DNA of 20,000 nt from Scenedesmus sp. PABB004 (taxonomy: Eukaryota), in the NCBI GenBank assembly GCA_014905635.1, contig JABVCE010000013.1:1162093-1182092 (forward strand), read 5' to 3'. Below the pieces are notes generated by a model. That model was not told where the DNA came from and ran no database searches. It was given only the letters and a program-made list of their open reading frames with translations. Position numbers and translations under genes: made by a program. Shown here one piece after another: positions 903-19,938 of this stretch (position 1 is the first letter of the stretch; the number at the start of each line of letters is the position of its first letter).

Positions 903-2095
903 TCACGACACGAGCACCTTGTCGGCCCAGCTCAGCATCATCTGGCGCCCGATGCTGGGCAGGTCGGACACGACCTGCTGCACGAGCCGCCCCGGGCTCA
1001 CGTCGGCCTGCAGCAGGCCCAGCACCTGCCGCACCTCCTCCACGTGTAGCTGGTTGTCCTCCGTCAGCGCCAGGATGGCCTGTGCGCGGCGCACGCACGC
1101 GGGCGGGGTGAGCGGCGCACGCGGGGGTGAGCGGCGCACGCGGGCGCGGGTGAGCGGCGCGGCGCAGCACACAGCTCGCGCGGCCCGCGCAGGCGCGCGC
1201 AGGCGCGCCGGGGCCCCACCCACCTGGCGCCGGAGCTTCTCGTCCACCATGAGCAGCCGCGCCGCATCGCGGACGGTATCGCTGAGGTCGAGCCCCCGCG
1301 CGCCGCTGCCGGCGCCGGTGCCGGCGCCGGCGGGGCTGCCCGGCCGGCTCGGCGGCGCCGCGCCGGGCATCGCCATCGCGCCGCCGCTGCCCTCGCGCGC
1401 GAGCGTGATGAGGTTGGTCAGCCGCGCCCACTGGAACTTGCCGCCCTGAAAGAGCACCTGGATCAGGCGCTCGCGCAGCGCGGGGTCCTCGTCCGTCAGC
1501 AGGCGCCTGCGGCGACGGCGGCGGCGCGAGCGCGCGCGCGGGCGGCGGCGGCGTGAGCGCGCGCGGCGCGCGCCGGCGCGCGCGACGCGCGCGCGCGCGA
1601 CGCGCGCGTGGGCCCCACGCGCCGCGCGCGTGGGCCAGCGCCGCGGCGGCGGCGGCGGCGGGCGGCGGGCGGCGGGCGGGCGCACCGCGCGACGTAGGGG
1701 TAGGCGACCTCGAGGAAGTGGAACTGCGGCTTGAGCGTCATGCAGATCCCCTCCTGCGTCAGCAGGCTGCGGATGACGAGGCTGTAGCGCTCCGGGATGC
1801 TGCGGCGGGACGCAGGCGGCGCGGCGGGTGAGGCGCGGGCGGCCGCGGGCGGCGGCGCGCGCGGTGCCCGACCAGGGGGCGGGCGAGCGCGGCGCGGCGG
1901 CGGCGGCGCGGCGCGGCGCGGTGAGCGGTGCAGCGCGCGCACCGGATGGGGTACTGGTACACGAGCTCGTTGAACTTGCTGGTCACGGTGCGGAAGTTGA
2001 AGTCGGCGAGGCTCTGGCCCTTGGAGTCGCGCCAGATGTTCTCCAGCGCCGGCACGATCGGGCTGATGTCGGTGCCTGGAGGAGGGCCGCGGCGC

Positions 2096-2135
<40 letters not shown>

Positions 2136-4666
2136 GCGTGCGTGAGCAGGGGCGCGAGTGCGGCGCGGCGCCGACCCCCGCGCCGAGCCGCCGCGCAGCG
2201 TGGGCGCCGGCCTGCGCGCACCCGCTGAGAGGAAGCCGAGCTTGATGAAGTCGCCTGCCATCTCATCATAGTCCTCGTTCACCGCGTGCACCACGGCGTC
2301 GATCAGCACCTGGCGGGCACAACGAGGGGCAGCCGCGGGCGGGCGCGGGCCGCGCGTCAGCGTCAGCGTCAGCGGCGCCGCGCGCGGCGGGGCGGCGGCG
2401 CGGCGCCGGCCGGTGCGCGCGCCTGCTTGTTGGAGTTGCTGAGCTGCGCGACGTTGCCAAAGTCGACGTACGCGATGCGGCCGTCGGCGAGGCAGAAGAT
2501 GTTGCCCGGGTGGGGGTCGCCGTGGAAGAGGCCGAACTCCAGCAGCTGCCGCAGCCCGCTCACCACGCCCACGCTGCGCGCGCGTGCCGGGCGGGGGCGC
2601 GCCGCGTCAGCCCGCCGCCGCCACCGTTGCAGCGGCCGCGGCCGCCGCCGCCGCGCCCGGGCCTGCTGCGCCGCGCCGCCGCCGCGCCCGGGCGTGCGTC
2701 GCCGCGGCCGCACCGGATGAACTCGTCCACGTCCACGCCGCTGCTGCGGATGCCGGCGATGTCGGTGCAGCGCGTGCCCTCGATCCACTCCATGACGACC
2801 ACCTTGCTCCCGCACAGGTCGCGGCGCACCCAGGGGATCTTGACCGACGCGTCGCCCGCAAAGTTGCGCCCAAACTCCTCGATGTTGCGCGCCTCCTGCG
2901 CGGCGGCGCGGCGGGCTGGGCGCGCGCCGCGCTGCCGCGAGTGCGCCGAGCGGGGCGCCGCAGCCGCCGCCGCCGCCGCGCATGCGCGTGCGCGTGGGCG
3001 CTGCCGCGCCGCGCGCCTGCATGTAGTCGAGCTCCTCCAGCAGCTTCTGCCCAAACTCGTCCACCACGAGCTCCGCGTTGCAGCCGAGGCGGGCGCGGGA
3101 GAGCGCGTTGAAGAGGCTGCCGAGGCCCCGGAACACAAACAAGTCCCGCAGGATGATCGGCTCGATGCCCGGGCGCTGCACCTTGACCGCGACCTCCTGC
3201 CCGCCGTCGCGCAGCACCGCCTTGTACACCTGAGGGCGCGTGAGGGCGTGGCGGCAGGCGCGCGCGCGGTCAGCGCGGCGGCGGCGGCGGCGGCGAGGCG
3301 GGCGCGGCGCGGCCCGCGCGCGCGGCGGCGGCCGACGCCGCGCGGCGCGCGCCTGGCCGAGCGACGCCGCGGCGACGGGCTGCTCGCTGATGCTGCTGAA
3401 CACCGCCTCGAGCGGCCGGCCGAGCTGCTCTGCGATGATCGCAAACGCCTCCTCGTCAGGGAACGGCGGCACGTCGTCCTGCGCGGCACGCGCGACGCGG
3501 CGAGGGTTGGCGGCGCGCGCGGCACGGCGCTGCGTGGGTGCGCGTGCGCGCACGGGCCCCGGTCGCCCGCCTCTCCCGCCCCCTGTCCGCCCTCCTGCTG
3601 CTCGCCCGCCCTCGTGCAGGCCCTCCTCCCGCGCGCCTGCAGGATGCAGAGCTCATTCATGTAATCCTCGCGCACAATGTCCGGGCGGTTGGCCAGCACC
3701 TGCGCGCGCGCGTTGCACGGTCAAACGCCGCCACCGCCGCCGCAGCCGGCGCGCCGCCGCGGGCTGCGCCGCCGCCCCACGCTGCGCCCGCGCCCGAGCC
3801 TTGGGCCCGCCGCGCCGCGCCGCGCCTGGCCGGCCTTGATGAAGCTCGGGCCGAGCTCGGTGAGCGTCTCGCGCAGCTGCTGCGCGCGGCGGCGCACGAT
3901 CTCGGGGCTGTCCTCGCTGCCGGTGAGGCGGTCAAACGCGAGGCAGGCAAAGTAGCTGCCCAGCGCGGTGACGATGTGACCCACGCGCGCCTGCGCGGCG
4001 GCGCGGGTGCGACGCGGCGGCGCGCGCGCGCGCGCCCGTGAGGCGCTGCAAGGGCGAGCCCCGCGGCCGCGCGCCCCTGCCCGGGGCCTCTGATGCGCGC
4101 GCGCGCATGGCGCTCACCGCGACCGCAAACGCGTCGCCCGGGGAGCGCAGCGCGCGGCTGCGCACGTACTCCGGGCTGTACTTGGAGATGAGGTTGCACA
4201 TCTGCTTCTCGTCCTCCAGCAGCTCCAGGCTGCCGCGCCGCTGCTCCTGCGGCTGCCGGCTGCGGCGGCGGCCGCGCGGGCGCGCGGGCGCGTGAGCGCC
4301 AGGCTGCGCCGCCGCTCGGGCAGCGCCGGCGCTCGGCGCCGGCGCTCGGCGCCGCTGCTGCCGGGCGCGCGTGGCGAACCCCCGGGCACGACGGCGGGGC
4401 GCGGCGCGGGCCCCCCTCGCGGCGCGGCCGCGCGCTGTGGCGCGGGGGCCACCACCACAATCGTGCGCCGCGCCTGCGCCGCGCGCCCGCCAGAGAGCGC
4501 GGCCCAGCGGCGCGTCCCCCGCAGCTCAGAGCGCCCGCCCGCACCTGGGCTTCAGCGGGCGCGCCGTGGCGGGCAGGGGCGTGCGCGCGAGCGCGGAGGC
4601 CGCGGCCGCGCGGGCCACCGGCGCCCGCCGGCCGGCGGGGCGGGGCCGCAGCGCGCCCGGCTGCAT
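903..4666 (-). CDS. ABC1K1: Plastoglobule ABC1/UbiB atypical kinase, ABC1K1/PGR6 orthologue; 13 exons: 4666-4545, 4259-4118, 3990-3826, 3699-3637, 3478-3353, 3229-3017, 2895-2714, 2573-2423, 2309-2222, 2075-1943, 1799-1686, 1506-1224, 1079-903
   Basis: The spliced product contains [87 protein letters not shown] and LALTEDNQLHVEE, closely matching plant ABC1K1 as I recall it. All splice phases are consistent. The Arg/Ala/Pro-rich N-terminus looks like a transit peptide. The exon 1/2 boundaries are the least certain. Confidence 0.93.
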
Positions 4667-5562: not shown

Positions 5563-5947
5563 ATGCTCGACCTCCTCGCCGCCGCCGACGGCGGCGCGGC
5601 GGCGGAGGACCTGCTGGCGGGGGCGTCCGGGGAGGGCATGGACATGCTCGGCTACACCCCCTACCTCGGCCTGGAGCACAGCGGGCTGCACAGCCCGGGC
5701 CGCGACGACGACGGCGGCGGCAGCAGCGACGCGGGCGGCGCGTTCTTCCCCGCCGCGAGCGGCGGCGGCGCCAGCAGCGCGGGCGGCGGGCTGCCGCACA
5801 GCGTGAGCATGACGCGGCTCGTGCCGATGCCCGCCGCGGCGGCGGCGCCGGCGCGCAGCGGCAGCGCCGGCCACGCGCTGCCCACGAGCAGCCGCGCGGC
5901 GGCCGCGCCGGCGGGCGCGCACAGCGCGAGCCTGCCGGGCTCGCCGC

Positions 5948-5984
<37 letters not shown>

Positions 5985-8749
5985 GCCGTCGGTGGGCTCG
6001 AGCCCGCGCGCCAGCCGCGCGCCGCCGTGCGCGACGCCGAGCGACACGCCCGGCGGCGGCGGCGGCGCGCGCTCATCGGCCGCGCCGGGGGACGGCGAGG
6101 CGACGCCCGAGCCGGAGCGCCTGCCCGCCACGGCGCCCGGCAGCAAGGCCAACAGCGGCACGAGCGACCTGGTGATGGGCGCGGGGCCCCTGCAGGCCGG
6201 CAGCAGCGGCGGCAAGCTGCTGAGCCAGCTGGCGGCGTCTGCCGCGCCGCCCGCCGGCGCGGCGGTGCGCGCCGAGGCGCCGCAGGCGGGCGCCGGCGGC
6301 GCGGGTGGCAGCGCCGCCGCGCCGCCGCGCGCGGCGGCCAGGCGCGGCGCGAGCGCGAGCGCGAGCGCCAGCCCCAGCCCGGCGGGCAAGGGCGGCGCGG
6401 GTGCGGGCGGCAAGGGCCTGCCGGCGGGGCGCAGCGCCGTGTTCCCGTCGGGCGCCGAGCTGCTGGGCGCGCCGGGCGGGGAGCAGGGCGACGCAGTGCT
6501 CCTGCTCAGCAGCGCGGCGCCGTCGGAGGGCGCCAAGCCCCCGAGCCGCAGCAGGCGGCGGGCACGGCGGCGGCGGCGCTCGCGGCGGCGCTCGCGGCCG
6601 CGGTGCAAGGCGGCGGCGGCGGCGGCGGCTGGCGTCCGAAGCAGCACCAGCAGCAGCACGTGCTCGACATGCTCTATGACACGCTGCTGCCCGGCAGCGG
6701 CGGCGGCGGCGCGCGCGCGGCGAGCAAGCCGCCCAAGCCCGCGCCACGCAGCGGCGGCGGCGGCGGCGGCGGCGCGCTGGAGCCCGCGTGGAGCGACGGC
6801 ATGGACTGGGCGTTGGAGCCGTCGCCCAGCGGCAGCGGCCCCGCCGCGCGGGGCAGCTTTGTGGGGGGCAGCTTTGTGGGGGGCAGCCGTGCGGCGAGCA
6901 CCGACGGCAGGCCCAGCGCCGACAAGCACCCCAAGCGGCAGGCAGACGCGGACGAGCCCAAGCGCAGCCAGCGCAAGCGCGTGCGTGGCCGCGCCGCGCC
7001 GCGCCGCGCGCTGCCGCGCCTTGCCGCGCGCTGCCGTGCCGTCTTGCCGCGCGCCGCCGACGCCGCGCGTGGGCCGCCACCGGTGCCGCCGCAGGTGCGC
7101 ACCGCCAAGGTGGTTGAGGCCGAGGAGGAGGAGGAGGAGCTCCTGGAGGCGTGCGGCCTGGCGCGGCGCCGCCCCTCCACCGCGGTGCAGGACCAGCAGC
7201 TGCTGCTGCGGCAGCAGCACGCGGCGCTCACCTACGGCGGCCTCAGCGGGCTGGGCCTGAGCCTGGGCATGGGCGCGGCGGGCCTGGGCGCGACGGTGCC
7301 GCTCGCGCCGTTTGCGGCCCGCCCGCCGCCAGGGCGCGCGGCGGAGCGCGGCGGCGGCAGCGGCGGCGGCGGCGGAAGCACGAGCGTGCTGGCGCAGCTG
7401 CAGGCGGCGGCAGAGGAGATGCTGAACAGCAGCACCTTCCTCGGCAGCGGTGGCGGCGCCCCTGGGGGCGGGCTGCTGGGCAGCCTGGGAATGCTGGCAG
7501 AGCTGCCGGGCGGCGGCGACGACTTCATGCCTGGCAGTGCCCCGGCGAGCGCACGCCCCCGGCGGGTGGCGGCGCCGGCGGCTCGGCGCGCGGCGCCGCG
7601 CCGGAGCGCGGCGGGAGCGCGGGCCCGGGCGCGGTCAGCGGGGGCGCCTCGGCGGCGGGCAGCCTCGCGCTCGCCGCCGCGGGCGCCGACGACGCCGGCG
7701 ACGGAGAGCTGCTGGAGGACGCGCAGGGCGGGCAGCGCCCGCGCAGCGCTGCCGTCAAGCCGTCCACGTCGGCCACAGCCGGCTGGCCCGGCCCCGACGC
7801 GCCGCCCGCCGACGGCGTCGCGGCGCTCGCGGCGGCGGCCGCCGCGGCTGCGGCGTCGGGCCAGGCGCTGGCGGCCGCGGCCGCTGCCGCTGCGGCGGGC
7901 CTCTCCACCAGCTGGGCGGCCGATGGCGCCGGCGGCGGCGGTGGCGCAGCCGGCGGTGGCGGCGGCGACGAGCAGGGCTTTCAGTTCCTGGGCGACGCAG
8001 TGGCGGCGGCGGCCGCCGCCGCCGCCGCCAGCGGCGCGGGCCTGCCACCGACGCCGGGCGCGGCGCGGCCGCGCGGGCCGTCGCCGGCCGTCGCTGCCAA
8101 GAAGAAGCGGCGCTCGGGCGCGCGCAAGTCTGGGTCGCGCGGGCGCTGCGGCGACCCCGACACGAGCGCCGCGCTCGCGGCGCTTACGCAGCTCGCGAGC
8201 GGCGACGGCGTGGCGCGCTTCGTCGGCGACCACGCGCGGCACTCGGACGCCGCGGCCGCGGCGGGCGGCGCGGCCGCGGACGGCGGCGGCGGCGCCGCGC
8301 CCGAGCCGCGCGTCGTGCAGGGCGGCCGCGGCGGCGAGGACGAGGGCACGCGCGCCGCGCGCGGCCCCGCCGCCGCGTCGCGCTACATCGGCGTGACGTG
8401 GCGCGAGCGCATCCAGCGCTGGGAGGTCTACGTCTGGGCGAGCAGCAGCAAGCGCAGCCACTACATCGGCGCCTTTCCCACCGCGATCAGCGCGGCGCGC
8501 GCGTACGACGTCGCGGTGCTCTGGCTCGTCGGCCAGGACGCGCGGCCGCGCACGCGGCTCAACTTCCCGCTGACAGACTACAACCTCGACGAAATCCAGG
8601 CCGAGGCGAGCGCGGTCGCGGCGATGCGCGCGCTGGGCAGCCAGATGAGCGCGAGCCAGCGCGGCGCGGCGGCCGCCGCCGCCGCGCAGGCGGCCGCAAA
8701 GCAGGCCGCCGCCGCGCCGGCCGGCGACGGGGGCGGCGGCGGCGCCGGC

Positions 8750-8780
<31 letters not shown>

Positions 8781-9438
8781 GGCGCGGCCGGCGTCGCGGT
8801 CGGGCGCGCGGCGCCCGGCCGGCGCGGTCGCCGTGGCCGCGGCGGCGGCCGCCGCGGCGGCCGCCGCGGACGACGCGGCGGCGGCGGCGGTGGAGTCGGA
8901 GGTCGCGGCGTTCCTCGCCGCGACCGCGACGGCCAAGGAGGGCGCCGCCGCGGCGGCGGCGGCCGCGTGCGGCGACGCGAGTGGCGGCGAGGGCGAGGAC
9001 GAGGACGACGCGCACCGCGGCATGCTGGACGCGCTCGAGCGCCTCGGTGAGGCCGCGCAGGCCGCGCGCGGCGACGCGGGGGTCAGCGCCAGCGGGAGCG
9101 GCGAGTACGGCGAGGAGTGCGACGACGACCTGCTGCTCCCGGGCGGCGCCGCGGGCACCGCGCTCGCCGAGGCGGCGGGCGGGCTCATGCACATGCACCG
9201 CAGCGCGAGCCAGCGCGCGCTCGCGCCGCGCGGCACGCCCGGCCCCGGGCCGAGCCCGAGCCCGGGCCCGGCCCCAGGCTCCGGCGGCGGCCCCGGCGGT
9301 GGCGGCGGCGGCGGCGAGGTGGTGCTGGACGACGCGTACCTCTCGCGGCAAGCCGCCGAGCTCGACGCGGCGGCGGCGGAGCTCGCGGCGGCCGCGGCGG
9401 CGCTCGGCTGCGAGGGCGCGCTCGGCGGCGACGAGTAG
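5563..9438 (+). CDS. Large low-complexity AP2/ERF-domain transcription factor (one AP2 domain at ~8378-8580); intron 6981-7094; three apparent -1 frame breaks (~6540, ~7558, ~8750)
   Basis: SRYIGVTWRERIQRWEVYVW...HYIGAFPTAISAARAYDVAVLWLVG...RLNFPLTDY has the AP2 YRG and RAYD elements. Protein-like Gly/Ala/acidic segments run successively through ORFs 5563, 6027, 7151 and 7450, ending at TAG 9436-9438. An NLS-like KKKRR precedes the domain. Confidence 0.8.
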
Positions 9439-9771
9439 GGCGCGGGGCGGCGGCGGCGGCCGCGGCGCGTGTGCAGGTGTGCAGAGCGGGGGGAGGATGC
9501 GGTTAGCTGCAGGGCGGGCGGCGCGCGTGATCTTTTGTTGTGTTTCCCGGCGCGGAGCGATTCGTCTCGGTCGTCGTCGTCGTGTGAGGGCCTGCCTGCC
9601 TGTCTGTCTCTGCGCGCAGTTGCGTGACGCATGTTTGGGCTTTGCAACACAGCCCCAGCCCCGCCGCCGGCAATGCGTCGCGACGTCAGGGACTGCACCC
9701 CCGCCCGCCCCGCGCCGCCGCCACGCGGCGCTGTGCACAGCGCCGCGCTCGGCACGTGCCGCGCGGCGCGC

Positions 9772-10593
9772 TCAGCACTCGCGTACGACGTACGCCGCGC
9801 CGCCGCCCGGCGCGGACGCGTAGTCGTGCGTGTTGTGGTCGGTCACGTTGGTGTCTGACAGCTCCAGGTTGTAAAAGTCCATCGCGTCCGCGCCGTCAAA
9901 GAGCGGGCCCGCGTGCCACGTGCCGGCCGCAAACTTGAGGAAGGCGCCGTGCGGCACCTTGAACGCGGCGAGGTCGGCGCTGCGCGGCGCCGCGGCGACG
10001 CTGCCGCTCGGGCGGGCGACGACGATGTACCACGGCGCCGGCGGGGAGAGGCCGCCGAGGCACTGCGTGACGCGCGCGTGGTACGTGATGCGCGTGAAGC
10101 GCAGCCCCCGGCGCGGCAGGCGCATGATGTAGAAGCGCGGCGTGCCCGCGCCGAGCTCCAGCTGCGCGTCGGCGGCGTCAAAGGGCTTGCCGTCGTCGGT
10201 GGGGCCGATCAGCTGCGGCGGCGGCGGCCGATGCGGCGGCGCTCGGCAGCAGCGGAACGCAGCGGCGGGCGCCCAGCCGCAGGCGCCGCCCGGCCGCTGC
10301 CGCGGCGGCGGTGAGAAGCTACTGAGCGCCGTTCCAGCGTGCGGCGCTGCCTGCCCGGCAGCCAGGCGCGCCCGTTGGGGCGCGGGGGCCTGTGCAGCGC
10401 CGCCGCACCTGACCAAACGGCGCGAAGCTCTCCGGCGTCGCGAGCTGCGCCTGCAGCTCGATGACCTGCTGTCCCGCCTGCTTCGCCGCCACCGCCACGG
10501 CCACGCCGCGGGGCCGCTGCTGCTGCCGCGCGCGCGGGCGGCGGCGGGCGAGGCGGCCGCCCGCGCCCGCGCGCAGCTGCTCAGTGTGTTCAT
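9772..10593 (-). CDS. Ureidoglycolate lyase/hydrolase (AllA-like cupin) family protein; exons 10593-10409 and 10212-9772; one apparent -1 break at ~10510-10513
   Basis: The spliced product has LATPESFAPFGQ|LIG, GTPRFYIM, RITYHARVTQCLG, GTWHAGPLF and FYNLELSDTNVTDH, motifs typical of plant/cyanobacterial ureidoglycolate-hydrolase-like proteins. GT-AG intron at 10408-10213. Confidence 0.82.
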   Translation of the reverse strand: MNTLSSCARARAAASPAAARARGSSSGPAAWPWRWRRSRRDSRSSSCRRSSRRRRASRRLVRCGGAAQAPAPQRARLAAGQAAPHAGTALSSFSPPPRQRPGGACGWAPAAAFRCCRAPPHRPPPPQLIGPTDDGKPFDAADAQLELGAGTPRFYIMRLPRRGLRFTRITYHARVTQCLGGLSPPAPWYIVVARPSGSVAAAPRSADLAAFKVPHGAFLKFAAGTWHAGPLFDGADAMDFYNLELSDTNVTDHNTHDYASAPGGGAAYVVREC

Positions 10594-11100: not shown

Positions 11101-12810
11101 TCACACCGTGGGCCCGTCGGTGAGCGCGGAGAAGCCGAACCGGTCGACGTCGCAGCCGTACCAGCGGCTCACGGCGTCAAAGCACACCTCCGCGCCCGGG
11201 TGCGCGTAGGGGTCGCTTACCGCGCCCGCGCGCACGTTCTTCTGCTCCAGCGGCGCGACCGGCAGCTCCGGCACGGACGGGTCGCGCCGCGCGTTGAGCT
11301 CGCGCACGACCTCGGCCCAGTCCTCGTTCGGCTCGTCCACGCGGCCGACGAAGTCGACCGCCCAGTCGCCGCCCGCGGTGCGCATGCAGTGCGCCTGCAG
11401 CGGCGCGCAGAGGCGGCGCGGCGGCGGCGGCGCTCGTGGCGCGCGCGGCCGCGGCGCCTGGCAGGCGGCCGGGTGAGCCGCCGGCTCTCCGCCAGCATCA
11501 TCATCATCCTTACGAGCAGCTGTATAGCTAAAAAAACAGCTGTGCATCATCCAGTCAGATGACTTGCTGTGAGCCCCTTTGGTCGGCCGCACCTGGTCGG
11601 TCATGTGGAAGTAGAGGTAGCTCTTGCTGCGCTTGATGCAGCCCCGGTCGTGCAGCGCCTCGGCCGCGGCCCACGGGTCGGCGCAGAACGACGCCCACGG
11701 CACGTGGCACGCCGGGTCCCGCAGCTTGTCGCTGCGCGGCGGACGGCGCGGGCGCCGCGGCGGGGCGTGAGCCGCGCCGCGCCGGCCGCCGCGCCGCGCC
11801 GGCCGCCGCCGCGCCGGCCGCGCTGCGCGCCCGCGCCCTGCCGCCACCGCGCGCCCTGCCGCCGCCGCGCGGCGCGCGCGGCGCCGCGCCGCGCACTCGT
11901 GCATGCAGCCGTTGGAGTGGAGGTACTTGTAGAGGCTGTACGCGCGGCGCCAGGGGTTGCGCACAAAGCCAAACACAAAGTATTCCTTCCACGTCGCGCT
12001 GAGGCTCTGCAGGTCGAGCTCGGTCGCGTTCCAGTAAAAGTGGAGGACCATGCAGCTGCTCGCGTTGTGCCCCGCCGTCGCCCGGTTGTTGCACTCGCCG
12101 AGCACGTTGACGATGCTCGTGCTCGCGGCCTTGGGGCTGCGCACGTAGATGTACTTGTACCTGGTGGGAGGCAGGCAGGCGCGCGCGGGGCGGGGGCGCG
12201 GGCAGGCGAGGCGCGGGGCTTGGTGGTGCTGTGCGCGCACAGCGCGGCGGCGGCGGCGACGGAAGCAGAGGGCCGCGCGCGCGGCGGGGCCGCGCCGCCA
12301 GCCCCGCCGGCGCGCGCGGTCGGCGCGCGCGGCTCGCTCACTTGTGGTTGACGAACACGTGGCAGCCGGGGAAGGGCAGCGGCGGGTGGTCGGGCGCGGC
12401 GCAGGTGTAGCTGTCGGCCGTCGCGGGCCCCGGCCCGCCCGCGGCGGTGCGGTTGACGCGCCAGGAGATGAACGCGTCGAGCCGCGCGTCCGAGTGCGCG
12501 CCCAGCCACGCGCGCGGGTCGGTCACGCCCGCCTTGGCCACGCGGCCGTGCACCGCGGGGCGGCGCGGCAGCGCGTCGGCCGACGACCGCACGTCGGCGC
12601 TCACGTCGACGAAGCGCGCGCCGCCCGCCGCGCCGGCGGCGCCCGCGGGCGGCCCCGCCGCGCCCTGCTCGTGCAGCGAGCGCGCCATGCCGCCCGCGCC
12701 GAGCTGCGCCGTCGCGCCGGCGCCCGCGCCGGCGCCGGCCGCCTCCGCGGCGCGCGCGGCCTTGCTCTGCAGCGCCGCCACCGCGGCTGCGAGCGGCTCA
12801 AACGGGGGCT

Positions 12811-13057: not shown

Positions 13058-13560
13058 GCCGTCCGGCCGGCGCCGCCGCTGCCGCCGCCGCTGTCGCCGC
13101 CGCCGCGCGCGGGGGGAGCCAGGGGTGCGGCGCGCGGTGCCTCGCCGCGCGCCGCGCCGCGCCCGCTGCCGGCGGCCCGCACCCTGCGCGTCCTGCGGGC
13201 GCGGGTGCGTGGGCGGGGGTTGAGGCCGCGGGGGTGGGGAGCTGCGAGCATCGGCGTCACCGCGCGGGCGCCGCTGCGGGCAGCTAGCGCCCCGGCGGCG
13301 CGCGGCGGCCGCCCCGCGCGGTCCGGACGCCTGCGCTGCCTGGAGATGGCACCCGCAGCCGGCCTGCCGCGGCGTGCTGACGCGGCACGGCGCGGCTGGG
13401 CGCGAGACGCGCGGCATGGCCGCGCAGCCGCCCAACCACCCCGCGCGCGGCGGCGCCGGGCCCGGCACCGATGTCTGCGTGACCGGGGCGAGCCGCAGCC
13501 GGCGCGGCGCGGCCCAGACCCCGCGTTTGCGCGGTGCCGCACCCGAGTCTACTGCTCGCG

Positions 13561-13600
13561 CCGGTGGTGACCGGCGCGCTGCTCTCTTCGCTCCACGCCT
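13561..13600 (+). repeat. Left copy of 40-bp direct repeat (partner 18133-18172), with internal palindrome CCGGT-GGTG-ACCGG
   Basis: ccggtggtgaccggcgcgctgctctcTTcgctccacgcct vs ccggtggtgaccggcgcgctgctctcCGcgctccacgcct (38/40). Both copies are preceded by ctgctc. Confidence 0.9.
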
Positions 13601-14274
13601 AAATAAAAACGCCAAGAGAGCAGGGAGACGCAACAACCGGCTCGAGTTCAGCCGCGGCGAGGGCCTCGTGCCCGGCGGCGCGGACGGCGCGTAGGCCGGG
13701 GCGTGCGCGGCGGCGAGCGGCGTCGGCCCCTAGGCCGGGACTTTGCGCAGTCCACAGTCGACGGACAACGCGGCGCCGCGGCCGCGCGCGCCGGCGCCGG
13801 GCTCGGGGCGCGGTCCAGCGCGGCTGCGACGCCGCCGCCCGCGCTCCGCCGCGGCGGTGTCCCCGCGAGCGCCCGCCCAGCCCCCCAGTGTTACCGCGCT
13901 CATCTCGTGTCCCTGTGGCACCCTGAGGCGTCGCAGCAGCGAGAGGCGAGGTTTCGAGAGCGTGGGCATGGCAGCACCCACGCGCCGCACCCGCGCGCCC
14001 GTCGCGCACGGCATGGCGTCCGTGTGGGTCGCCCGACACCGACGCGTGCCGCTCCGCCGCGGCGCGCTGCCGCGTCCGGGGCGGGCGGGGTTGATCGACA
14101 TCTGCGCCGCGCCGCCCGCTGCCCGGCGCCCCGCGCAGGCCCGCTCCTGGCGAGCGATGGGCCGGAGGAGGGGGTTATGGGCGGGGGTGAGCGCCCGCGC
14201 CGCCGCGCCGCCGCGCCGCCGCCGCTGCTGAGATGGGCGGCGGCAAGCGCCCGTGCCGCTGCTGCGCATGCGCA

Positions 14275-14377
14275 CGGCACGCCGTGGAAGAACACCAGGC
14301 TGCGTCGCGTGGTCTTCCACGGCGTGCCGCGGAAGAACACCAGGCGACGCAGCCTGGTGTTCTTCCACGGCGTGCCG
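14275..14377. repeat. Inverted repeat H1: perfect 34-bp arms (14275-14308 / 14344-14377)
   Basis: cggcacgccgtggaagaacaccaggctgcgtcgc is the exact reverse complement of gcgacgcagcctggtgttcttccacggcgtgccg. Confidence 0.95.
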
Positions 14378-14983
14378 AACGGCAACTGCGCGCTGCACCT
14401 GCTCGCCGCGGTGCGGCGGCGCCTGCTGCACCTGCTGCGCCTGGCGCCCGGCGCCGACGTGGTGGCTTTGTGCTCTCGCTCGCCGACCCCGAGGGAGGCG
14501 GTGCTGATCGGTGCTCCTTCTTGACCGCCGCCGAGCTGCGGCTCTGCTCTGCGTCGCGCACCGCCTGCCGGCGTCCTCGAGCGCCGCGCCGTCGAAGCTG
14601 GGCGCGGCGGCCTCGCAGGCGGCGCCCGGCGGCGGCGGCGAGGAGGGCGGTGCCCCGGCGGCGGGCGGCGCCAGCGCCGGGCCGTCCGCCGGCAGCGCCG
14701 CGGCTGGCAGCGACGAGGTGGGGGGCCCGGCGGCGGGCCCGCCGCAGCAGCCGCAGCAGCAGCAGCAGCAGCAGCAGCAGCGGCGGCGCAGCCGCAAGAA
14801 GCGCCGCGGCAAGGGCAACGGTGCCGCAGCGCACAGCAGCGCAGGCTGGCTGACGGCCGCCGCTGCGCCGCGCCCCGCAGGCACGGTGGTGCGCCGCCTG
14901 CGCAGCGCGCTGGCGCGCGCGGCGCGCGTGGGGCGGCCCGCCCTGCCCGCGGCGCTGGTCAACGCGCGCATGCACCTCATCAA

Positions 14984-15110
14984 CTGCCGCCGCTGCACCG
15001 CGCGGCGGGTGCTCACTCGCAGGCGTAGTACGTCATGAGCTCGTGCGCCTGCAGCTCGTGACGTTCTACGCCTGCGCGTGAGCGCCCGCCGCGCGGTGCA
15101 GCGGCGGCAG
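14984..15110. repeat. Inverted repeat H2: 58-bp arms (14984-15041 / 15053-15110), 11-nt loop
   Basis: 54/58 Watson-Crick pairs; two of the four differences are G:U pairs on the + strand. Confidence 0.95.
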
Positions 15111-15210
15111 CGTGTGTTGCAGGACCTGATTTTTGCTGTCACGAGCCTGCCAGGGCGGCAGTTTATGTTGGCAACGCGCATCCCAGGGGAGCTGCAGCGC
15201 ATGCTGCCGC
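15104..15210. repeat. Inverted repeat H3: 19-bp outer stem with 3 G:U pairs plus an imperfect inner stem
   Basis: gcggcagcgtgtgttgcag (15104-15122) pairs with ctgcagcgcatgctgccgc (15192-15210). Inner ctgcc/ggcag stem. Confidence 0.75.
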
Positions 15211-15264
15211 TCTTTTGGGCGGCGACGGGCGCGGCCGCGGCGGAGCTGCCGCGCTGGGTGAGCC

Positions 15265-15358
15265 CCGCGGGTGGCGCGCGTGCAGGCGCACGTTGAGCGC
15301 AAACAGCCGGGTGTAGCCTTTTGCACTCAACGTGCGCCTGCACGCGCGCCACCCGCGG
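15265..15358. repeat. Inverted repeat H4: 39-bp arms (15265-15303 / 15320-15358), 16-nt loop
   Basis: 38/39 complementary. Confidence 0.95.
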
Positions 15359-15441
15359 CTGCGCCAAGCTGGGCAGCGCGCTCGTGTGCGCCGTGCTGGC
15401 GAAGAGCCCCGCCGCGTGGGATGCGGCGTGGCAGCCGGCGG

Positions 15442-15494
15442 AGAAAGTCCAGCGGCGGCGGCGAGGCGGAGGCGCGCCGCGCGCTGGAGTTTCT
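15442..15494. repeat. Inverted repeat H5: short imperfect stem
   Basis: agaaaGtccagcg pairs with cgctggaGtttct (12/13) and extends inward with gcggcg/cgccgc. Confidence 0.65.
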
Positions 15495-15918
15495 GCGGCG
15501 CCACGCGCTGGCGCTGCGGCTCGAGCTGCTGCGGCCGCTGCCGCCGCAGCACGACCCCGACGCCGCAGCCGGCGACGGCGACGCGGCGCCCGGCGGGCCG
15601 GCGGCGACCGCCGCTGCCGGCGCGCGGGACCGCCCGCCGCCCGCCGGCCGCGCGGAGGACCTGCAGGCCCTGGGCCGACGGCGGACCTGTAGACGTGGCT
15701 GCTCGCCGGCCGCGGCTCGGCGCACGCCGGCGGTGGCGGCAGCGACGGCGGCGGCGGCAGCAGCGGCTGGCGCGCGGCGATGGAGGCGCCGCCGCCCGCG
15801 GACGCGCCGGCCGACCCCGGTGCCAACGACGACGCAGAGCAGCAGCCGGCCCAACAACCGAGCCACGCGCAGCGCCTGGACGCGCTGCGTCAGGCGCGGC
15901 GGCAGCAGGCGCGGCGGC

Positions 15919-16009
15919 AGCAGGGCGAGGCAGACGCGGCCCACCGCGAGGCCGACGCAGCGGCTGCGTTCGGCGACCTGGCGGTGGGCCGCGTCTGCCT
16001 CGCCCTGCT
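15919..16009. repeat. Inverted repeat H6: perfect 29-bp arms (15919-15947 / 15981-16009) with a structured loop
   Basis: agcagggcgaggcagacgcggcccaccgc / gcggtgggccgcgtctgcctcgccctgct. The loop contains ccga-cgcagc / gctgcg-t-tcgg. Confidence 0.95.
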
Positions 16010-16084
16010 CCCCCACTGCCGCCGCCTGCAGGCGCGAGGTGAAATAATTCGCAGAGCTTCCTGCAGGCGGCGGCAGTGGGGGAG
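16008..16084. repeat. Inverted repeat H7: perfect 25-bp arms (16008-16032 / 16060-16084), AT-richer loop
   Basis: ctcccccactgccgccgcctgcagg / cctgcaggcggcggcagtgggggag; loop cgcgaggtgaaataattcgcagagctt. Confidence 0.95.
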
Positions 16085-16284
16085 TGGCGGCGCCGCGCGC
16101 CAGGCGCGGCCGTGGTGCGGCAGGTGCAGGGGCTGCCGCTGCTGGAGCTCGCCGCCACGCCGCGGGTCGTGGCGCAGCGCGCCGCGAGCGTGCCCGGGCC
16201 GTCGGCGCCACCTTCGCGCCTCGCGGCGCTGCAGCAGCTCAAGGCCGACACGGCGGCCGCCCAGCAGCGCCTCGCTGCGCTGGC

Positions 16285-16487
16285 GGTGCGGCTTGGCGGC
16301 GACGTGCTGCCCGGCGCGCTGGTTGCGAGGCCGCCTGCCTGGCCTCCCTGCGCGCCTCGTAGAGCTTGTGACGCGCTGCTGGGCCAACCTCTACGAGGCC
16401 CGCAGGGAGGCCAGGCAGGCGGCGCTCGCAGAGGTGCGGCTTGGCGGCGACGTGCTGCCCGGCGCGCTGGTCGCGAGGCCGCCTGCC
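16285..16487. repeat. 55-bp direct repeat (16285-16339 / 16433-16487) bracketing inverted repeat H8 (35-bp arms, 16330-16364 / 16389-16423)
   Basis: Direct repeat 54/55 identical (encodes VRLGGDVLPGALVARPPA twice). Hairpin 34/35, extended by tgcgag/ctcgca. Confidence 0.95.
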
Positions 16488-17146
16488 GCCGCGCTGGGCG
16501 CGCTGGCGGACGCGCGCGAGCAGCTCGAGGCGGCCGCGTGGCAGCAGCAGGCGGCGCCGGGGCCCCTGGCTGCAGTGTGGCCCGGCGCGCAGGCCGCCCA
16601 CGCGGCCCTCGCCGGCGCGGGCCAGCAGCTGGGCGAGGCGCGGGCGCGCGCGCTGCGCTTTGCCGGGCGGCACCTCGGCGATCATGTCGCTGCGGCGGCC
16701 GCGCAGGAGCGCGCGTGGCACCCGCCGGCGGCGCTGCCGGCGGCGCCGCCGCAGAGCCTGGCGGCGGCGCGCGAGCTGCTGGACCGGCTGGACGCCGTCC
16801 TCCAGCACCTCCGCCTGGCTGCGCCGCGCGGCTGAGCTGCAGGCCGACATCGCCGCCGCTGCCCTGCGCCAGCGCAACCCGGGGTTGCGAGTCGACGCGG
16901 CGTCGCGTGCGCGCGCGGCCGCGTTTGCCCCCGGCGTGGACGACGCGCTGCTCGAGCGCCTGCGCAAGCTGAGGGCACGCGGCGCGCTGCAGGTCGAGCG
17001 TGTCGCGGTGCAGGTGCCCCTGGGCGCTCTCGAAACGGTGCAAGTGCACCCGCCCGTAGCGCTGGGCGAATGCTCGACAAACGGCTACGACGCGTGCGTG
17101 GCGCGGGTGTGCGCCGACCCGGCCGCCGCCGCCCGCGCGCCGGCTC

Positions 17147-17201
17147 CCGAGCCGGGCTCGAGCGACGCCGAGCCGGGCTCGAGCGACGCCGAGCCCGGGC
17201 T
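17147..17201 (+). repeat. 21-bp tandem repeat, about 2.5 copies (EPGSSDA), each unit containing the palindrome cgagcc-g-ggctcg
   Basis: ccgagccgggctcgagcgacg x2 followed by ccgagcccgggct. Confidence 0.85.
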
Positions 17202-17316
17202 GGCGCCGACGCCCGACCCCGCGGCGGCGGCGGCGGCTGCAGCGGCGGCGGCGCCGCCGTCGCGCGACCCGCTGCCGCCCTGGCGCCGGCCCGCCCGGCC
17301 CGGCCCCGCCGACCGC

Positions 17317-17364
17317 CGCGCGGTGTCGTCGGCCTTGAACGTTCAAGGCCGACGACACCGCGCG
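17317..17364. repeat. H9: perfect 48-bp spacerless palindrome
   Basis: cgcgcggtgtcgtcggccttgaac|gttcaaggccgacgacaccgcgcg. Confidence 0.97.
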
Positions 17365-17802
17365 CGCGCAGGCCGCGCTCGCCGCCGGCGGCGCAGTCCT
17401 CGACGCCGTGTTTGACCCCGCCCGGCCGGCCGCGCCGGCGGCCGCGGCGGCGGCGGCGGCGGCGCCCGGCACGCGGCGATGTCGCCGAGGCGGGGGTCCC
17501 AGCCGAACACCAGCGCTGGGGGCGCACGCTGGTGTTGGCGCTGTCGCACCCTGCCTACGGCTGCACGCGCCGCGCGCACCGCCGCGCAGCACCGCTGCCC
17601 CGCCGCGCACGACGCGCGGGGCGGCGCCGACGTGGTGACGCTGTCGACGCGGGGGTATCGGGACGCATCAGCACGGGGCGGAGGGGGGCCGGGGCGGGGG
17701 CACGTCGGTGCGTTTGCGCGCGCGCAGGAGGGCCTGGCCACGCGCGCGCCGCGGCAACTTCCTGGCCGCCGCCGACGCGGCGGGCGCGCGCGTGGGCCTG
17801 TT

Positions 17803-17888
17803 TGACCGTGCATTTTCTGTCTACGGCTGCATGCATGCGTGGGAGTTTCGGGTGCACATGCTGAACGACAAGGAGATGCACCGGGTTA
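17803..17888. repeat. H10: degenerate, G:U-rich stem-loop
   Basis: gtgcattttc-tgtc pairs with gacaaggagatgcac (2 G:U, 1 bulge); weaker inner pairing of the tgcat/gtgca region. Confidence 0.55.
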
Positions 17889-18132
17889 ATTTTTCAACGC
17901 ATTCGTCAGGCAGTGGCGCGGGCGCCTGGGATGCGCGACGGCTTCAATCAAGGTGGGCGCGGGGGCGGTGCGGCGGCCGGCGCGGGCGCGGCGGGCGCGG
18001 GCGGGCGGCGGGGGCGAGCTCGCGCCGGCCCAGCCTGACGGCGAGGGCGAAGATAGAGTTTGAGGTCCGAGGTCCGAGGTCCCAGCCGCCGCCGCCGGGG
18101 CGCGCGCCCCGCCGGGGCGCCTCTGCTCCCGG

Positions 18133-18172
18133 CCGGTGGTGACCGGCGCGCTGCTCTCCGCGCTCCACGCCT
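18133..18172 (+). repeat. Right copy of 40-bp direct repeat (partner 13561-13600)
   Basis: 38/40 identity to 13561-13600. Confidence 0.9.
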
Positions 18173-18563
18173 CAAGGCCGCGGGGCAGCACGGCGCTCCT
18201 CCTCCTGCGTCCCCTGCACGGCCGGTGAGCGTGGGCCGCGCCCGCCCGCAGGGCCTCCGGCAAAGCCCGCGCTGTTCAATTCGCGCTCGCTCATCACGCC
18301 TCCTCGCTCTCCGCTGCCGCCCCCCTTTACCGCACTCGGTCGCGGCCGCCACCCTCGAGCAGCGCCGCGCCCGCCACGGGCGCCGAGCGCGGCTGCAGCT
18401 CCTCAGCACAGCAGGATTCCTTGGCGCGCCCGCCCCGCGCCCCAGCGCCAGCCCCGCGGCCCGGCGCCGCACCCAGAGGCGCAGATAGTCATTACCTAGC
18501 CGTCAGGCCCGCCGCATGGCCGCCTAGCGCAGCAGCGCCCGCCTCCTGGCGCGGGAGAGCAGC

Positions 18564-19938
18564 ATGGACCCGCCCAAGCCGCAGCCGCAGCAGGGGGGCG
18601 GCGGCGAGGCAGGCGTGTTCGCGGCCCTGGCCGCCCAGATACGCGCCCTGGCCGCGCGGGCAGGCCAGGGCGCGCAGCAGACGCAGCAGACGCAGCAGCA
18701 GCAGGCGCAACCTCCACCCGCCGGCGGCGCCGCCCGTGCAGGCGCGCCCGCCGACGCCGCGCAGCTGGCGGCGCAGGCGGCGCAGCTGGCGGCGCAGGTG
18801 CGGCAGCAGCAGCTCCTCGCAGCGATGCGCGCGGCGGCCGAGCACCGCGCCGCGGCCGAGCAGCGCGCGGCGCAGCAGCGCGCCGCCGCGGGCGCGGGCG
18901 GCGCGGGGGCGGGGGGCCCGGCGGGGCGCCCCCCGCGCCCGGGCAGCCGCCCGCGCAGCCGCTGGCGGCGCCGCTCGTGCCGGGGGGCACGTACGCAGAC
19001 GGCAGCCGCCGCGTGCTCGTCGGCGCGCCGCGGGGCAGGCGCCGCCGCAGCACGCGCAGGCGGCGGTGCGCGCGATGGTGCAGCGCGCCGCGCTGTCGCA
19101 GGCGAGCGCGACGTCGTCGGCCGTGCACCAGCGGGCGATGATCGCGGCGCTGCAGGCGTCCACCGCGCAGCGCGCGCAGCTTGCGGAGCGGCAGCGCCAG
19201 CAGTACGAGGAGATCATGGCCCAGCAGCGCCAGCGCGCCGAGGCGGCGCACCAGGCAGCGCAGGCCGCGCGGCGCGAGGCGGTCATGGTGTGCGGCGCGC
19301 GCGCGCGCGCGCGCGCGCGCGCCCGCCACGATGGCCGCCGCCGACGCGGCCGCCCGGCCGGGGCGCCTCGCGCCGCAGGAGGCGGCCGACGCGGCGGAGG
19401 GCGCGCACGAGGACGAGGAGGAGGACAGCGGCGACATCTACGCCAACTACAAGCGAGTGCTACGCGCGCGGCGCGCTCTGCTCGCGGGCGCACGGCCGCG
19501 CGCGCTCGTGCACGCACCGCACGGCGCCCGCCCGCCCGCGCGGCGGCGGGGCGTCACGCCGCCCGCCCTCCCGCCCGCGCCGCCGCGCCGCGCCAGGCCG
19601 TCCAAGGTGGTAGGGCCGGACCACCCTGACATCATCGTCGAGACGGCGTCGCTCGCGAGCGTCACGCCGCCCGACCCCGCCTACGACGTCCACCCGCTGC
19701 TGCAGGCGCGCGGGCTCTGGGCGCGGGGGCGCGGGCGTGGGCGGGGCGGGCGGCGCGCGCCGCTGCGTCCGCAGGGTGCGCGTGCGCTGCCTGCCGCCGA
19801 CGGGCGCGCCGCCGCGCGGCGCCGCCGCCGCCGCCGGCTCGCAGGAGGACGTGGCGGCGCGGCGGCTGTCGGGCGCGCAGCTGGAGACCCTGGTGTACGC
19901 CAACATGCGCTTCAACGGCCCGCGCCTGCCCGGCGGCG
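18564..19938 (+). CDS. SBNO: Strawberry notch / FORGETTER1-like (SBNO) helicase-like protein, 5' part; exons 18564-19287 (two apparent -1 breaks near 18925 and 19033), 19379-19452, 19597-19705, 19845-19938; continues off the window
   Basis: The spliced product DIYANYK|PSKVVGPDHPDIIVETASLASVTPPDPAYDVHPLLQ|EDVAARRLSGAQLETLVYANMRFNGPRLPGG matches the conserved SBNO segment (Y.PSK..G..HPD..VET.SL..V.PP...Y...LS..QLE...YA) that precedes the GDGAGVGKG P-loop. Gln/Ala-rich N-terminus. Confidence 0.85.

Follow-up and report, generated by a model that had tools for sequence, protein, structure and literature searches.

Clustered near-perfect hairpins in a lineage-specific coding-like sequence of a very GC-rich green alga: a possible record of local template-switch copying

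Introduction

The locus described here is a group of hairpins set into a coding-like sequence of a 20,000-nucleotide (nt) stretch of DNA from Scenedesmus sp. PABB004 (contig JABVCE010000013.1, positions 1,162,093 to 1,182,092), referred to below as the window. Its closest described counterparts are template-switch mutations, which include new primate microRNA (miRNA) hairpins; passages of PMC10710096 document that template switching needs only one step to create perfect stems as well as inverted repeats combined with direct ones. The likeness lies in a reverse-complement copy placed tens of bases away, in near-perfect stems, and, at two of our hairpins (H1 and H8), in mixed direct and inverted copies with quasi-palindromes as pivots (passages of PMC10710096). 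The locus differs in packing seven to eight events into 3.1 kb, all of one polarity and with arms of at most 58 nt, and in that we infer these events rather than reconstruct them.

A second counterpart is the set of DCL3-dependent precursors of miRNAs and small interfering RNAs in Chlamydomonas, described in passages of PMC4817775, which are likewise long near-perfect stem-loops inside a green-algal protein-coding unit. Our locus, known from DNA alone, has instead many unrelated hairpins within one gene, with arms drawn from that gene's own coding-like sequence, and it resembles the algal miRNA precursors in shape only.

Plant MIR genes reportedly arise by inverted duplication of their target gene, as Allen et al. 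are said to have proposed in 2004. There too the arms derive from protein-coding sequence through inverted duplication, whereas the copies at our locus are 13-58 nt long and sit inside the founder sequence, and no separate target gene was found in the collections searched. Finally, polymerase theta makes snap-back templated insertions, and duplication-inverted-triplication junctions arise by replication template switching. These resemble the locus in that flanking sequence is copied in inverted form and joined at microhomology, and error-prone copying of this kind could explain the transversions among the stem mismatches reported below; polymerase theta insertions are said to be mostly shorter, single and at induced breaks, whereas the locus is a natural cluster. 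A dense same-polarity cluster of flank-copied hairpins in an algal or other eukaryotic gene is described by none of the titles that a non-exhaustive literature search returned.

Provided that the hairpins are real, fold-back or template-switch copying has left an unusually dense natural record here, in a nuclear gene of a eukaryote: seven to eight young events, all of the same polarity. Polymerase direction and the part played by short quasi-palindromes as pivots could then be tested, and so could the question whether the copies decay, are spliced out or are recruited as hairpin RNAs. The locus would also show in what way green algae come by the raw material for hairpin-RNA genes.

A cluster of strong hairpins confined to one locus

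The whole window was scanned for hairpins without gaps (match +1, mismatch -3, loop of at most 60 nt). Seven matches scored 24 or more (range 24-42), all of them within 14275-17364 (3.1 kb), while the remaining ~17 kb of the window held no match scoring 18 or more and nothing above 17. The same ceiling applied to 40 dinucleotide-preserving shuffles of the whole window, which gave no match of 18 or more and a maximum of 17. The original prediction, made from the letters alone, had named seven inverted repeats and had seen nothing comparable in the flanking genes; all seven are present where it placed them, and they are the sole hairpins of this kind in the window and absent from the 40 shuffles. 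Such a tight grouping of hairpins in one gene is unusual. The hairpins, with z scores from RNA folding, are as follows.

14275-14377: H1; arms 14275-14313 and 14339-14377, 38 of 39 positions paired; z -14.2
14984-15110: H2; arms of 58 nt, 14984-15041 and 15053-15110, 54 of 58 paired, 11-nt loop; z -16.0
15265-15358: H4; arms of 39 nt, 15265-15303 and 15320-15358, 38 of 39 paired, 16-nt loop; z -11.5
15442-15494: H5, the weaker one; arms 15442-15454 and 15482-15494, 12 of 13 paired, 27-nt GC-rich loop; z -4.45, with 0 of 200 shuffles as good
15916-16012: H6; core arms 15919-15947 and 15981-16009, 29 of 29 paired, or 42-nt arms at 90%; z -10.6
16008-16084: H7; arms 16008-16032 and 16060-16084, 25 of 25 paired, 27-nt loop; z -11.5
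16330-16423: H8; arms 16330-16364 and 16389-16423, 34 of 35 paired (37 of 39 for the hairpin 16330-16423); z -9.5
17317-17364: H9; arms 17317-17340 and 17341-17364, 24 of 24 paired, a perfect 48-nt palindrome without a loop; z -9.4

The seven strong hairpins have arms of 24-58 nt with 90-100% pairing, and their folding z scores run from -9.4 to -16.0, none of 200 shuffles doing as well for any of them. An inverted-repeat finder, which returned 315 pairs in the window, ranked the named hairpins at the top; its other long pairs were 70-83% complementary, GC-rich and of low complexity. When RNA was folded in sliding 120-nt windows on both strands, with folding energy regressed on G+C, values of z below -3.5 occurred only inside the locus, on both strands, and the minimum among the 516 folding windows outside it was -3.1 on the + strand and -2.6 on the - strand.

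The array had been put at about ten stem-loops, of which seven strong hairpins and a moderate one (H5) stand. Four short candidates fall within the range of their shuffles: 17490-17550 (z -1.8, 15 of 200 shuffles as good), 13885-13975 (z -1.5, 19 of 200), 17040-17105 (z +1.2, 183 of 200) and 15111-15257, probably the H3 of the prediction (z -2.2, 6 of 200). Because the short candidates other than H5 are thus no better than shuffled sequence, we count seven strong hairpins and one moderate hairpin.

Anatomy of the hairpins

Each arm is unique in the window except for its own partner, and the eight hairpin units are mutually unrelated. Their G+C fraction, 0.69-0.79, lies for all eight below that of each of the nine introns of the neighboring ABC1 kinase gene (0.84-0.93) and close to that of the ABC1 exons (0.59-0.77), in agreement with the view that the arms are complex, exon-like sequence and not microsatellite.

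The two arms of a hairpin are not equivalent. It had been proposed that in most cases the 3' arm reads as ordinary coding sequence and the 5' arm is its antisense copy, and the best-frame codon score is indeed higher in the 3' arm in all eight hairpins (sign test, P = 0.008). At H1, H5, H7, H8 and H9 the 3' arm continues in frame into the coding-like block that follows, with a switch of frame at the loop (f0 to f1 across H5, f0 to f2 at H7, f2 to f0 at H8, and f1 to f2 at the very center of the H9 palindrome). At H2, H4 and H6 the frame is identical on either side; it is open across both arms of H6, while the 5' arms of H2 and H4 carry a TGA, at 15036-15038 and 15294-15296 respectively, in the frame common to both flanks. 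H7, whose loop is relatively A+T-rich, adjoins H6.

Two hairpins have additional copies. The interior of H1 holds a further sense copy (14309-14329) and a further antisense copy (14320-14345), with a 10-nt quasi-palindrome (14320-14329) as pivot, so that H1 as a whole is a zig-zag, antisense-sense-antisense-sense, of two plus two copies of the same ~21-26 nt overlapping at that quasi-palindrome. A 55-nt direct repeat occurs on either side of H8, at 16285-16339 and 16433-16487; its copies are 98% identical, lie 148 nt apart and each read as the same peptide in the local frame. Its final 10 nt double as the outermost 10 nt of the H8 stem.

Counting all 277 arm positions, the stems contain 16 mismatches, of which two are compatible with G:U pairing on the + strand, three on the - strand and 11 on neither. 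Of 249 pairs in the core stems seven are mismatched, none of them in H7 or H9; for this reason all of the events look young. In the 120-nt folding windows the + and - strands fold about equally well. Since the mismatches show no strand bias and both strands fold alike, there is no sign of selection at the RNA level, and the hairpins are DNA palindromes without an RNA-strand signature.

The host coding-like sequence

The hairpins interrupt a series of blocks with 3-base periodicity, for which the gene model is approximate.

14233-17958, + strand: host lineage-specific coding-like sequence, with 3-base periodicity and an ATG at 14233
14353-14469, 14583-14963, 15123-15257, 15369-15446, 15490-15561, 15753-15893, 16085-16285, 16434-16796, 16837-17130, 17348-17416 and 17753-17889, + strand: the host blocks with 3-base periodicity

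Over 661 host codons, G+C was 0.85 at the first codon position (GC1), 0.59 at the second (GC2) and 0.91 at the third (GC3); GC3 falls to 0.82 in two of the blocks and stands at 0.96 in the ABC1 gene. A composition-based Viterbi segmentation tells the ABC1 exons from the introns, but in the locus it tracks mostly G+C and barely separates the strands (summed coding score, 610 versus 494), and was dropped as a basis for the host gene model.

The host has no recognizable kin. A Pfam search of 125 stop-to-stop frames of the window had no match inside the locus; outside it, the search returned just ABC1, a sulfotransferase and, below threshold, a ureidoglycolate lyase (E = 0.0077). The 11 coding-like blocks of the locus gave nothing useful in Pfam at E values up to 10. 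No protein homologue was found for 16434-16832 or 17738-17956, and none for 16372-17412 among 1.84 billion representatives; the ESM Atlas offered no usable match to the locus, or just unnamed bacterial clusters at 0.91. The viral and metagenome contigs scanned held no related locus, exact locus patterns had no match in prokaryote genome contigs or viral contigs, and the only paralogy between the locus and the rest of the window is a 13-residue stretch encoded by the bracketing repeat described below. The host is therefore an orphan, with no Pfam domain, protein relative or related locus in the collections searched. An OTU-protease-like motif near 14365 was rejected for want of Pfam support.

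That the hairpins lie in a broken coding sequence, as had been predicted, is plausible, since the 5' arms of H2 and H4 have in-frame TGA codons and the frame switches at H1, H5, H7, H8 and H9, but it is not proven, splicing not being decidable from sequence. The frame also changes at two sites away from the hairpins, ~15670-15695 (f1 to f0) and 16797-16842 (f0 to f1), neither with space for an intron of local size; these two changes may be frameshift mutations or base-calling errors. With the frame disturbed at most hairpins and at two hairpin-free sites, and with codon bias weaker than in ABC1, the gene is probably decaying.

The locus lies between two copies of a direct repeat.

13560-13603, + strand: left copy of the bracketing direct repeat, 41-44 nt, 93-95% identical to the right copy
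18132-18175, + strand: right copy, 4572 nt from the left copy

Each copy holds a small palindrome and a TGA that closes a long open frame. After the left copy comes a short run rich in A+T, very unusual for the local DNA. The repeat may mark gene ends as a shared signal, be the scar of a duplication, or represent the two ends of a segment that was inserted.

Template-switch copying as a tentative origin

We tentatively favor, at a confidence that stops short of calling it probable, a series of young template-switch or fold-back inverted duplications of a single polarity, within a lineage-specific gene that is probably decaying, in a green alga with very GC-rich DNA. On this account 13-58 nt of coding-like sequence, the present 3' arm, would have been copied as its reverse complement and set 0-33 nt upstream, as the present 5' arm. 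The likeliest mechanism would be template switching or fold-back priming by the nascent DNA strand, in replication or break repair, with that strand pivoting on short pre-existing quasi-palindromes; a single event could leave a stem that is almost perfect, at times with direct and inverted copies mixed. If every event was an intra-strand fold-back, we infer that the nascent strand was the - strand each time. The copies would add stop codons and frame changes, so that the gene probably decays, or survives only if they are spliced out. The hairpins would thus be mutational by-products; their transcripts, if any, would fold at -60 to -132 kcal/mol and could feed Dicer if the alga has one.

A nearby reverse-complement copy, as template switching would leave, is present in all eight hairpins, with loops of 0-33 nt and arms otherwise unique in the window. 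Pivots at short inverted pairs, together with mixed copies, are seen in two of the eight (H1 and H8), the six others being plain hairpins. A perfect 21-nt tandem duplication at 17147-17188 marks a further recent copying slip in the locus and counts in favor of the same account; its two 21-nt copies are in frame. Local inverted duplication had also been part of the original prediction, and it is the natural origin given the zig-zag of H1 and the direct repeat plus inverted copy of H8, but the source gene copy that the prediction called for was not found in the collections searched.

Several observations weigh against serial template switching. No sister sequence lacking one of the copies was found in the collections searched, so that single events are not demonstrated. 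Deleting the 5' arm and loop restores the frame in four of the eight hairpins (chance, 1 in 3), and because it does so in only four, simple insertion of a copy is not a full account; a pure insertion of 5' arm plus loop was accordingly rejected. The polarity margin is small for H6 and H7. The assignment of coding to the + strand rests on a modest asymmetry (GC3 of 0.91 versus GC1 of 0.85, and the 610 versus 494 of the summed coding score). Transversions make up 11 of the 16 mismatches, which is odd for plain decay. Finally, mutation alone does not explain the clustering, with seven to eight events in 3.1 kb, whereas the remaining 17 kb, introns and spacers included, has none: this needs either a local hot spot or a locus that is the sole unconstrained complex DNA in a compact, gene-dense window.

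Alternative explanations

The alternative that survives best, unlikely as we judge it, is that of a working RNA locus, in which one transcript carries seven to eight Dicer substrates and the small RNAs cut from them silence paralogues, a transposon, a virus or the transcript of the host itself; the hairpins, though born of inverted duplication, would be kept by selection. Such retention accounts for the clustering (seven in 3.1 kb, none elsewhere in the window) more easily than mutation alone, and the stems are long, near-perfect and very stable (z -9.4 to -16.0). Precedents exist in passages of PMC4817775, where many DCL3-dependent miRNAs of Chlamydomonas come from introns, untranslated regions and even coding exons of messenger RNAs, and of PMC10710096, where template switching is documented as an origin of new miRNA hairpins. 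Selection on an RNA would be suggested, though not strictly defined, by mismatches that tolerate wobble pairing and by one strand folding better than the other; the locus has neither, showing no strand bias in its mismatches (two versus three, 11 neutral) or in folding. Rfam at its gathering thresholds gave no match. No target or source copy was found in the window or in the protein and contig collections searched, and the proposal that a captured gene copy tiles its source so far lacks an object, the same searches having revealed no hairpin-free source, paralogue, transposon or virus relative. Nor can an RNA interference pathway be assumed in the host alga, because passages of PMC9871001 report at least one very GC-rich trebouxiophyte in which neither Dicer nor Argonaute was detected.

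It is more doubtful still that the gene is intact, its introns holding the hairpins, as structures that bring splice sites together or hide a 3' splice site and exon start, or as mirtron-like introns. In-phase pairs of splice sites of the local type, at spacings inside or close to the local size range, exist at H1 (14253-14352, 100 nt), H2 (14964-15122, 159 nt, GC-AG), H4 (15258-15368, 111 nt), H6 and H7 together (15894 or 15909 to 16123 or 16129, 215-236 nt) and H8 (16286-16433, 148 nt), and the H4 candidate is nearly all stem, folding almost end to end. However, while every hairpin has in-phase solutions, a control on 2000 random segments found at least one in 89% of them when any AG acceptor was allowed and in 74% when CAG was required. 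Such solutions therefore have next to no weight, and the in-phase GT/GC-AG pairs were dropped as evidence after this control. The composition of the hairpins is that of exons (0.69-0.79, against 0.84-0.93 for introns), and the coding-like blocks on either side of H5, of H9 and of the two hairpin-free frame changes (near 15690 and at 16800-16840) are less than ~50 nt apart, far under local intron size. Non-conventional introns defined by stems are those of the euglenid or Amoebophrya type; these were rejected for the locus, where removal of the whole hairpin restores the frame in three of the eight cases, which is the chance level.

A more novel reading has a protein-coding gene caught turning into a multi-hairpin RNA locus, with serial template switches of one polarity making antisense copies of the starts of coding blocks just ahead of those blocks, and a transcript with seven to eight long perfect stems that feed Dicer, so silencing the gene or unseen paralogues, or lock 3' splice sites and exon starts. 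We regard it as improbable; if true, the locus would be a one-locus record of the birth of a hairpin-RNA cluster from coding sequence in a unicellular alga.

Equally hard to credit is an artefact of sequencing or assembly, by fold-back chimeras or a poorly supported stretch of assembly, which would fit with the restriction of the hairpins to one stretch, the perfect palindromy of two of them and the unexplained frame changes of the locus. Yet the arms differ by mismatches or bulges in five of the seven strong hairpins, each hairpin requires two exactly placed junctions within ~100 nt, the loops have by reading no common or adapter-like sequence, and the adjacent ABC1 gene assembles cleanly into a 461-codon open frame. 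If the hairpins do prove to be artefactual, they flag a weak spot in the assembly.

Small palindromic mobile elements inserted in the gene, of the miniature inverted-repeat transposable element (MITE) or introner kind, would account for compact palindromic units within a gene, and transposon-derived introns are reportedly known in other algae, but this is very improbable here: the eight units are unrelated, with arms unique in the window, and so form no family; by reading, no target-site duplications are seen at the eight borders (the 55-nt repeat of H8 does not qualify, as it overlaps the stem instead of flanking it); the arms run in frame into the adjoining coding-like sequence; and the viral, metagenome and prokaryote genome contigs scanned held no copy.

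Genomic context

The window is ~80% G+C throughout. Near the hairpin locus, at 1330-3963 on the - strand, Pfam identifies an ABC1/aarF kinase gene, whose best relatives are in green plants and algae, single exons being 56-88% identical to a Chlorella sorokiniana protein; by this kinship the window is nuclear DNA of a green alga. The gene has nine introns of 113-179 nt, five of GC-AG and four of GT-AG type, all nine ending in CAG. Donor sequences after CAG are GCGCGC or GCGCGG for the GC-AG type, and GTGCGC or GTGCGG for the GT-AG type. The GC-AG share (5 of 9) is unusually high, and standard gene finders would be misled by it. All nine introns are 84-93% G+C and the exons 59-77%. Spliced in silico, the exons give 461 open codons, and this open frame with its clean splice sites indicates that the assembly is good close to the locus.

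Between the ABC1 gene and the locus, an open frame at 11104-12522 (- strand) has a Sulfotransfer_2 domain match (E = 2.3e-07) and is a further ordinary gene. The + strand at 5563-9823 has very long open frames of 82-85% G+C and low complexity, without a Pfam match; the many GC-rich inverted matches there, 70-80% complementary, are effects of composition, unlike the locus hairpins. Near the other end of the window, a ~30-nt alternating run of G and C at 19294-19323 is self-complementary by composition and gives the best non-locus hairpin match near that end (score 15).

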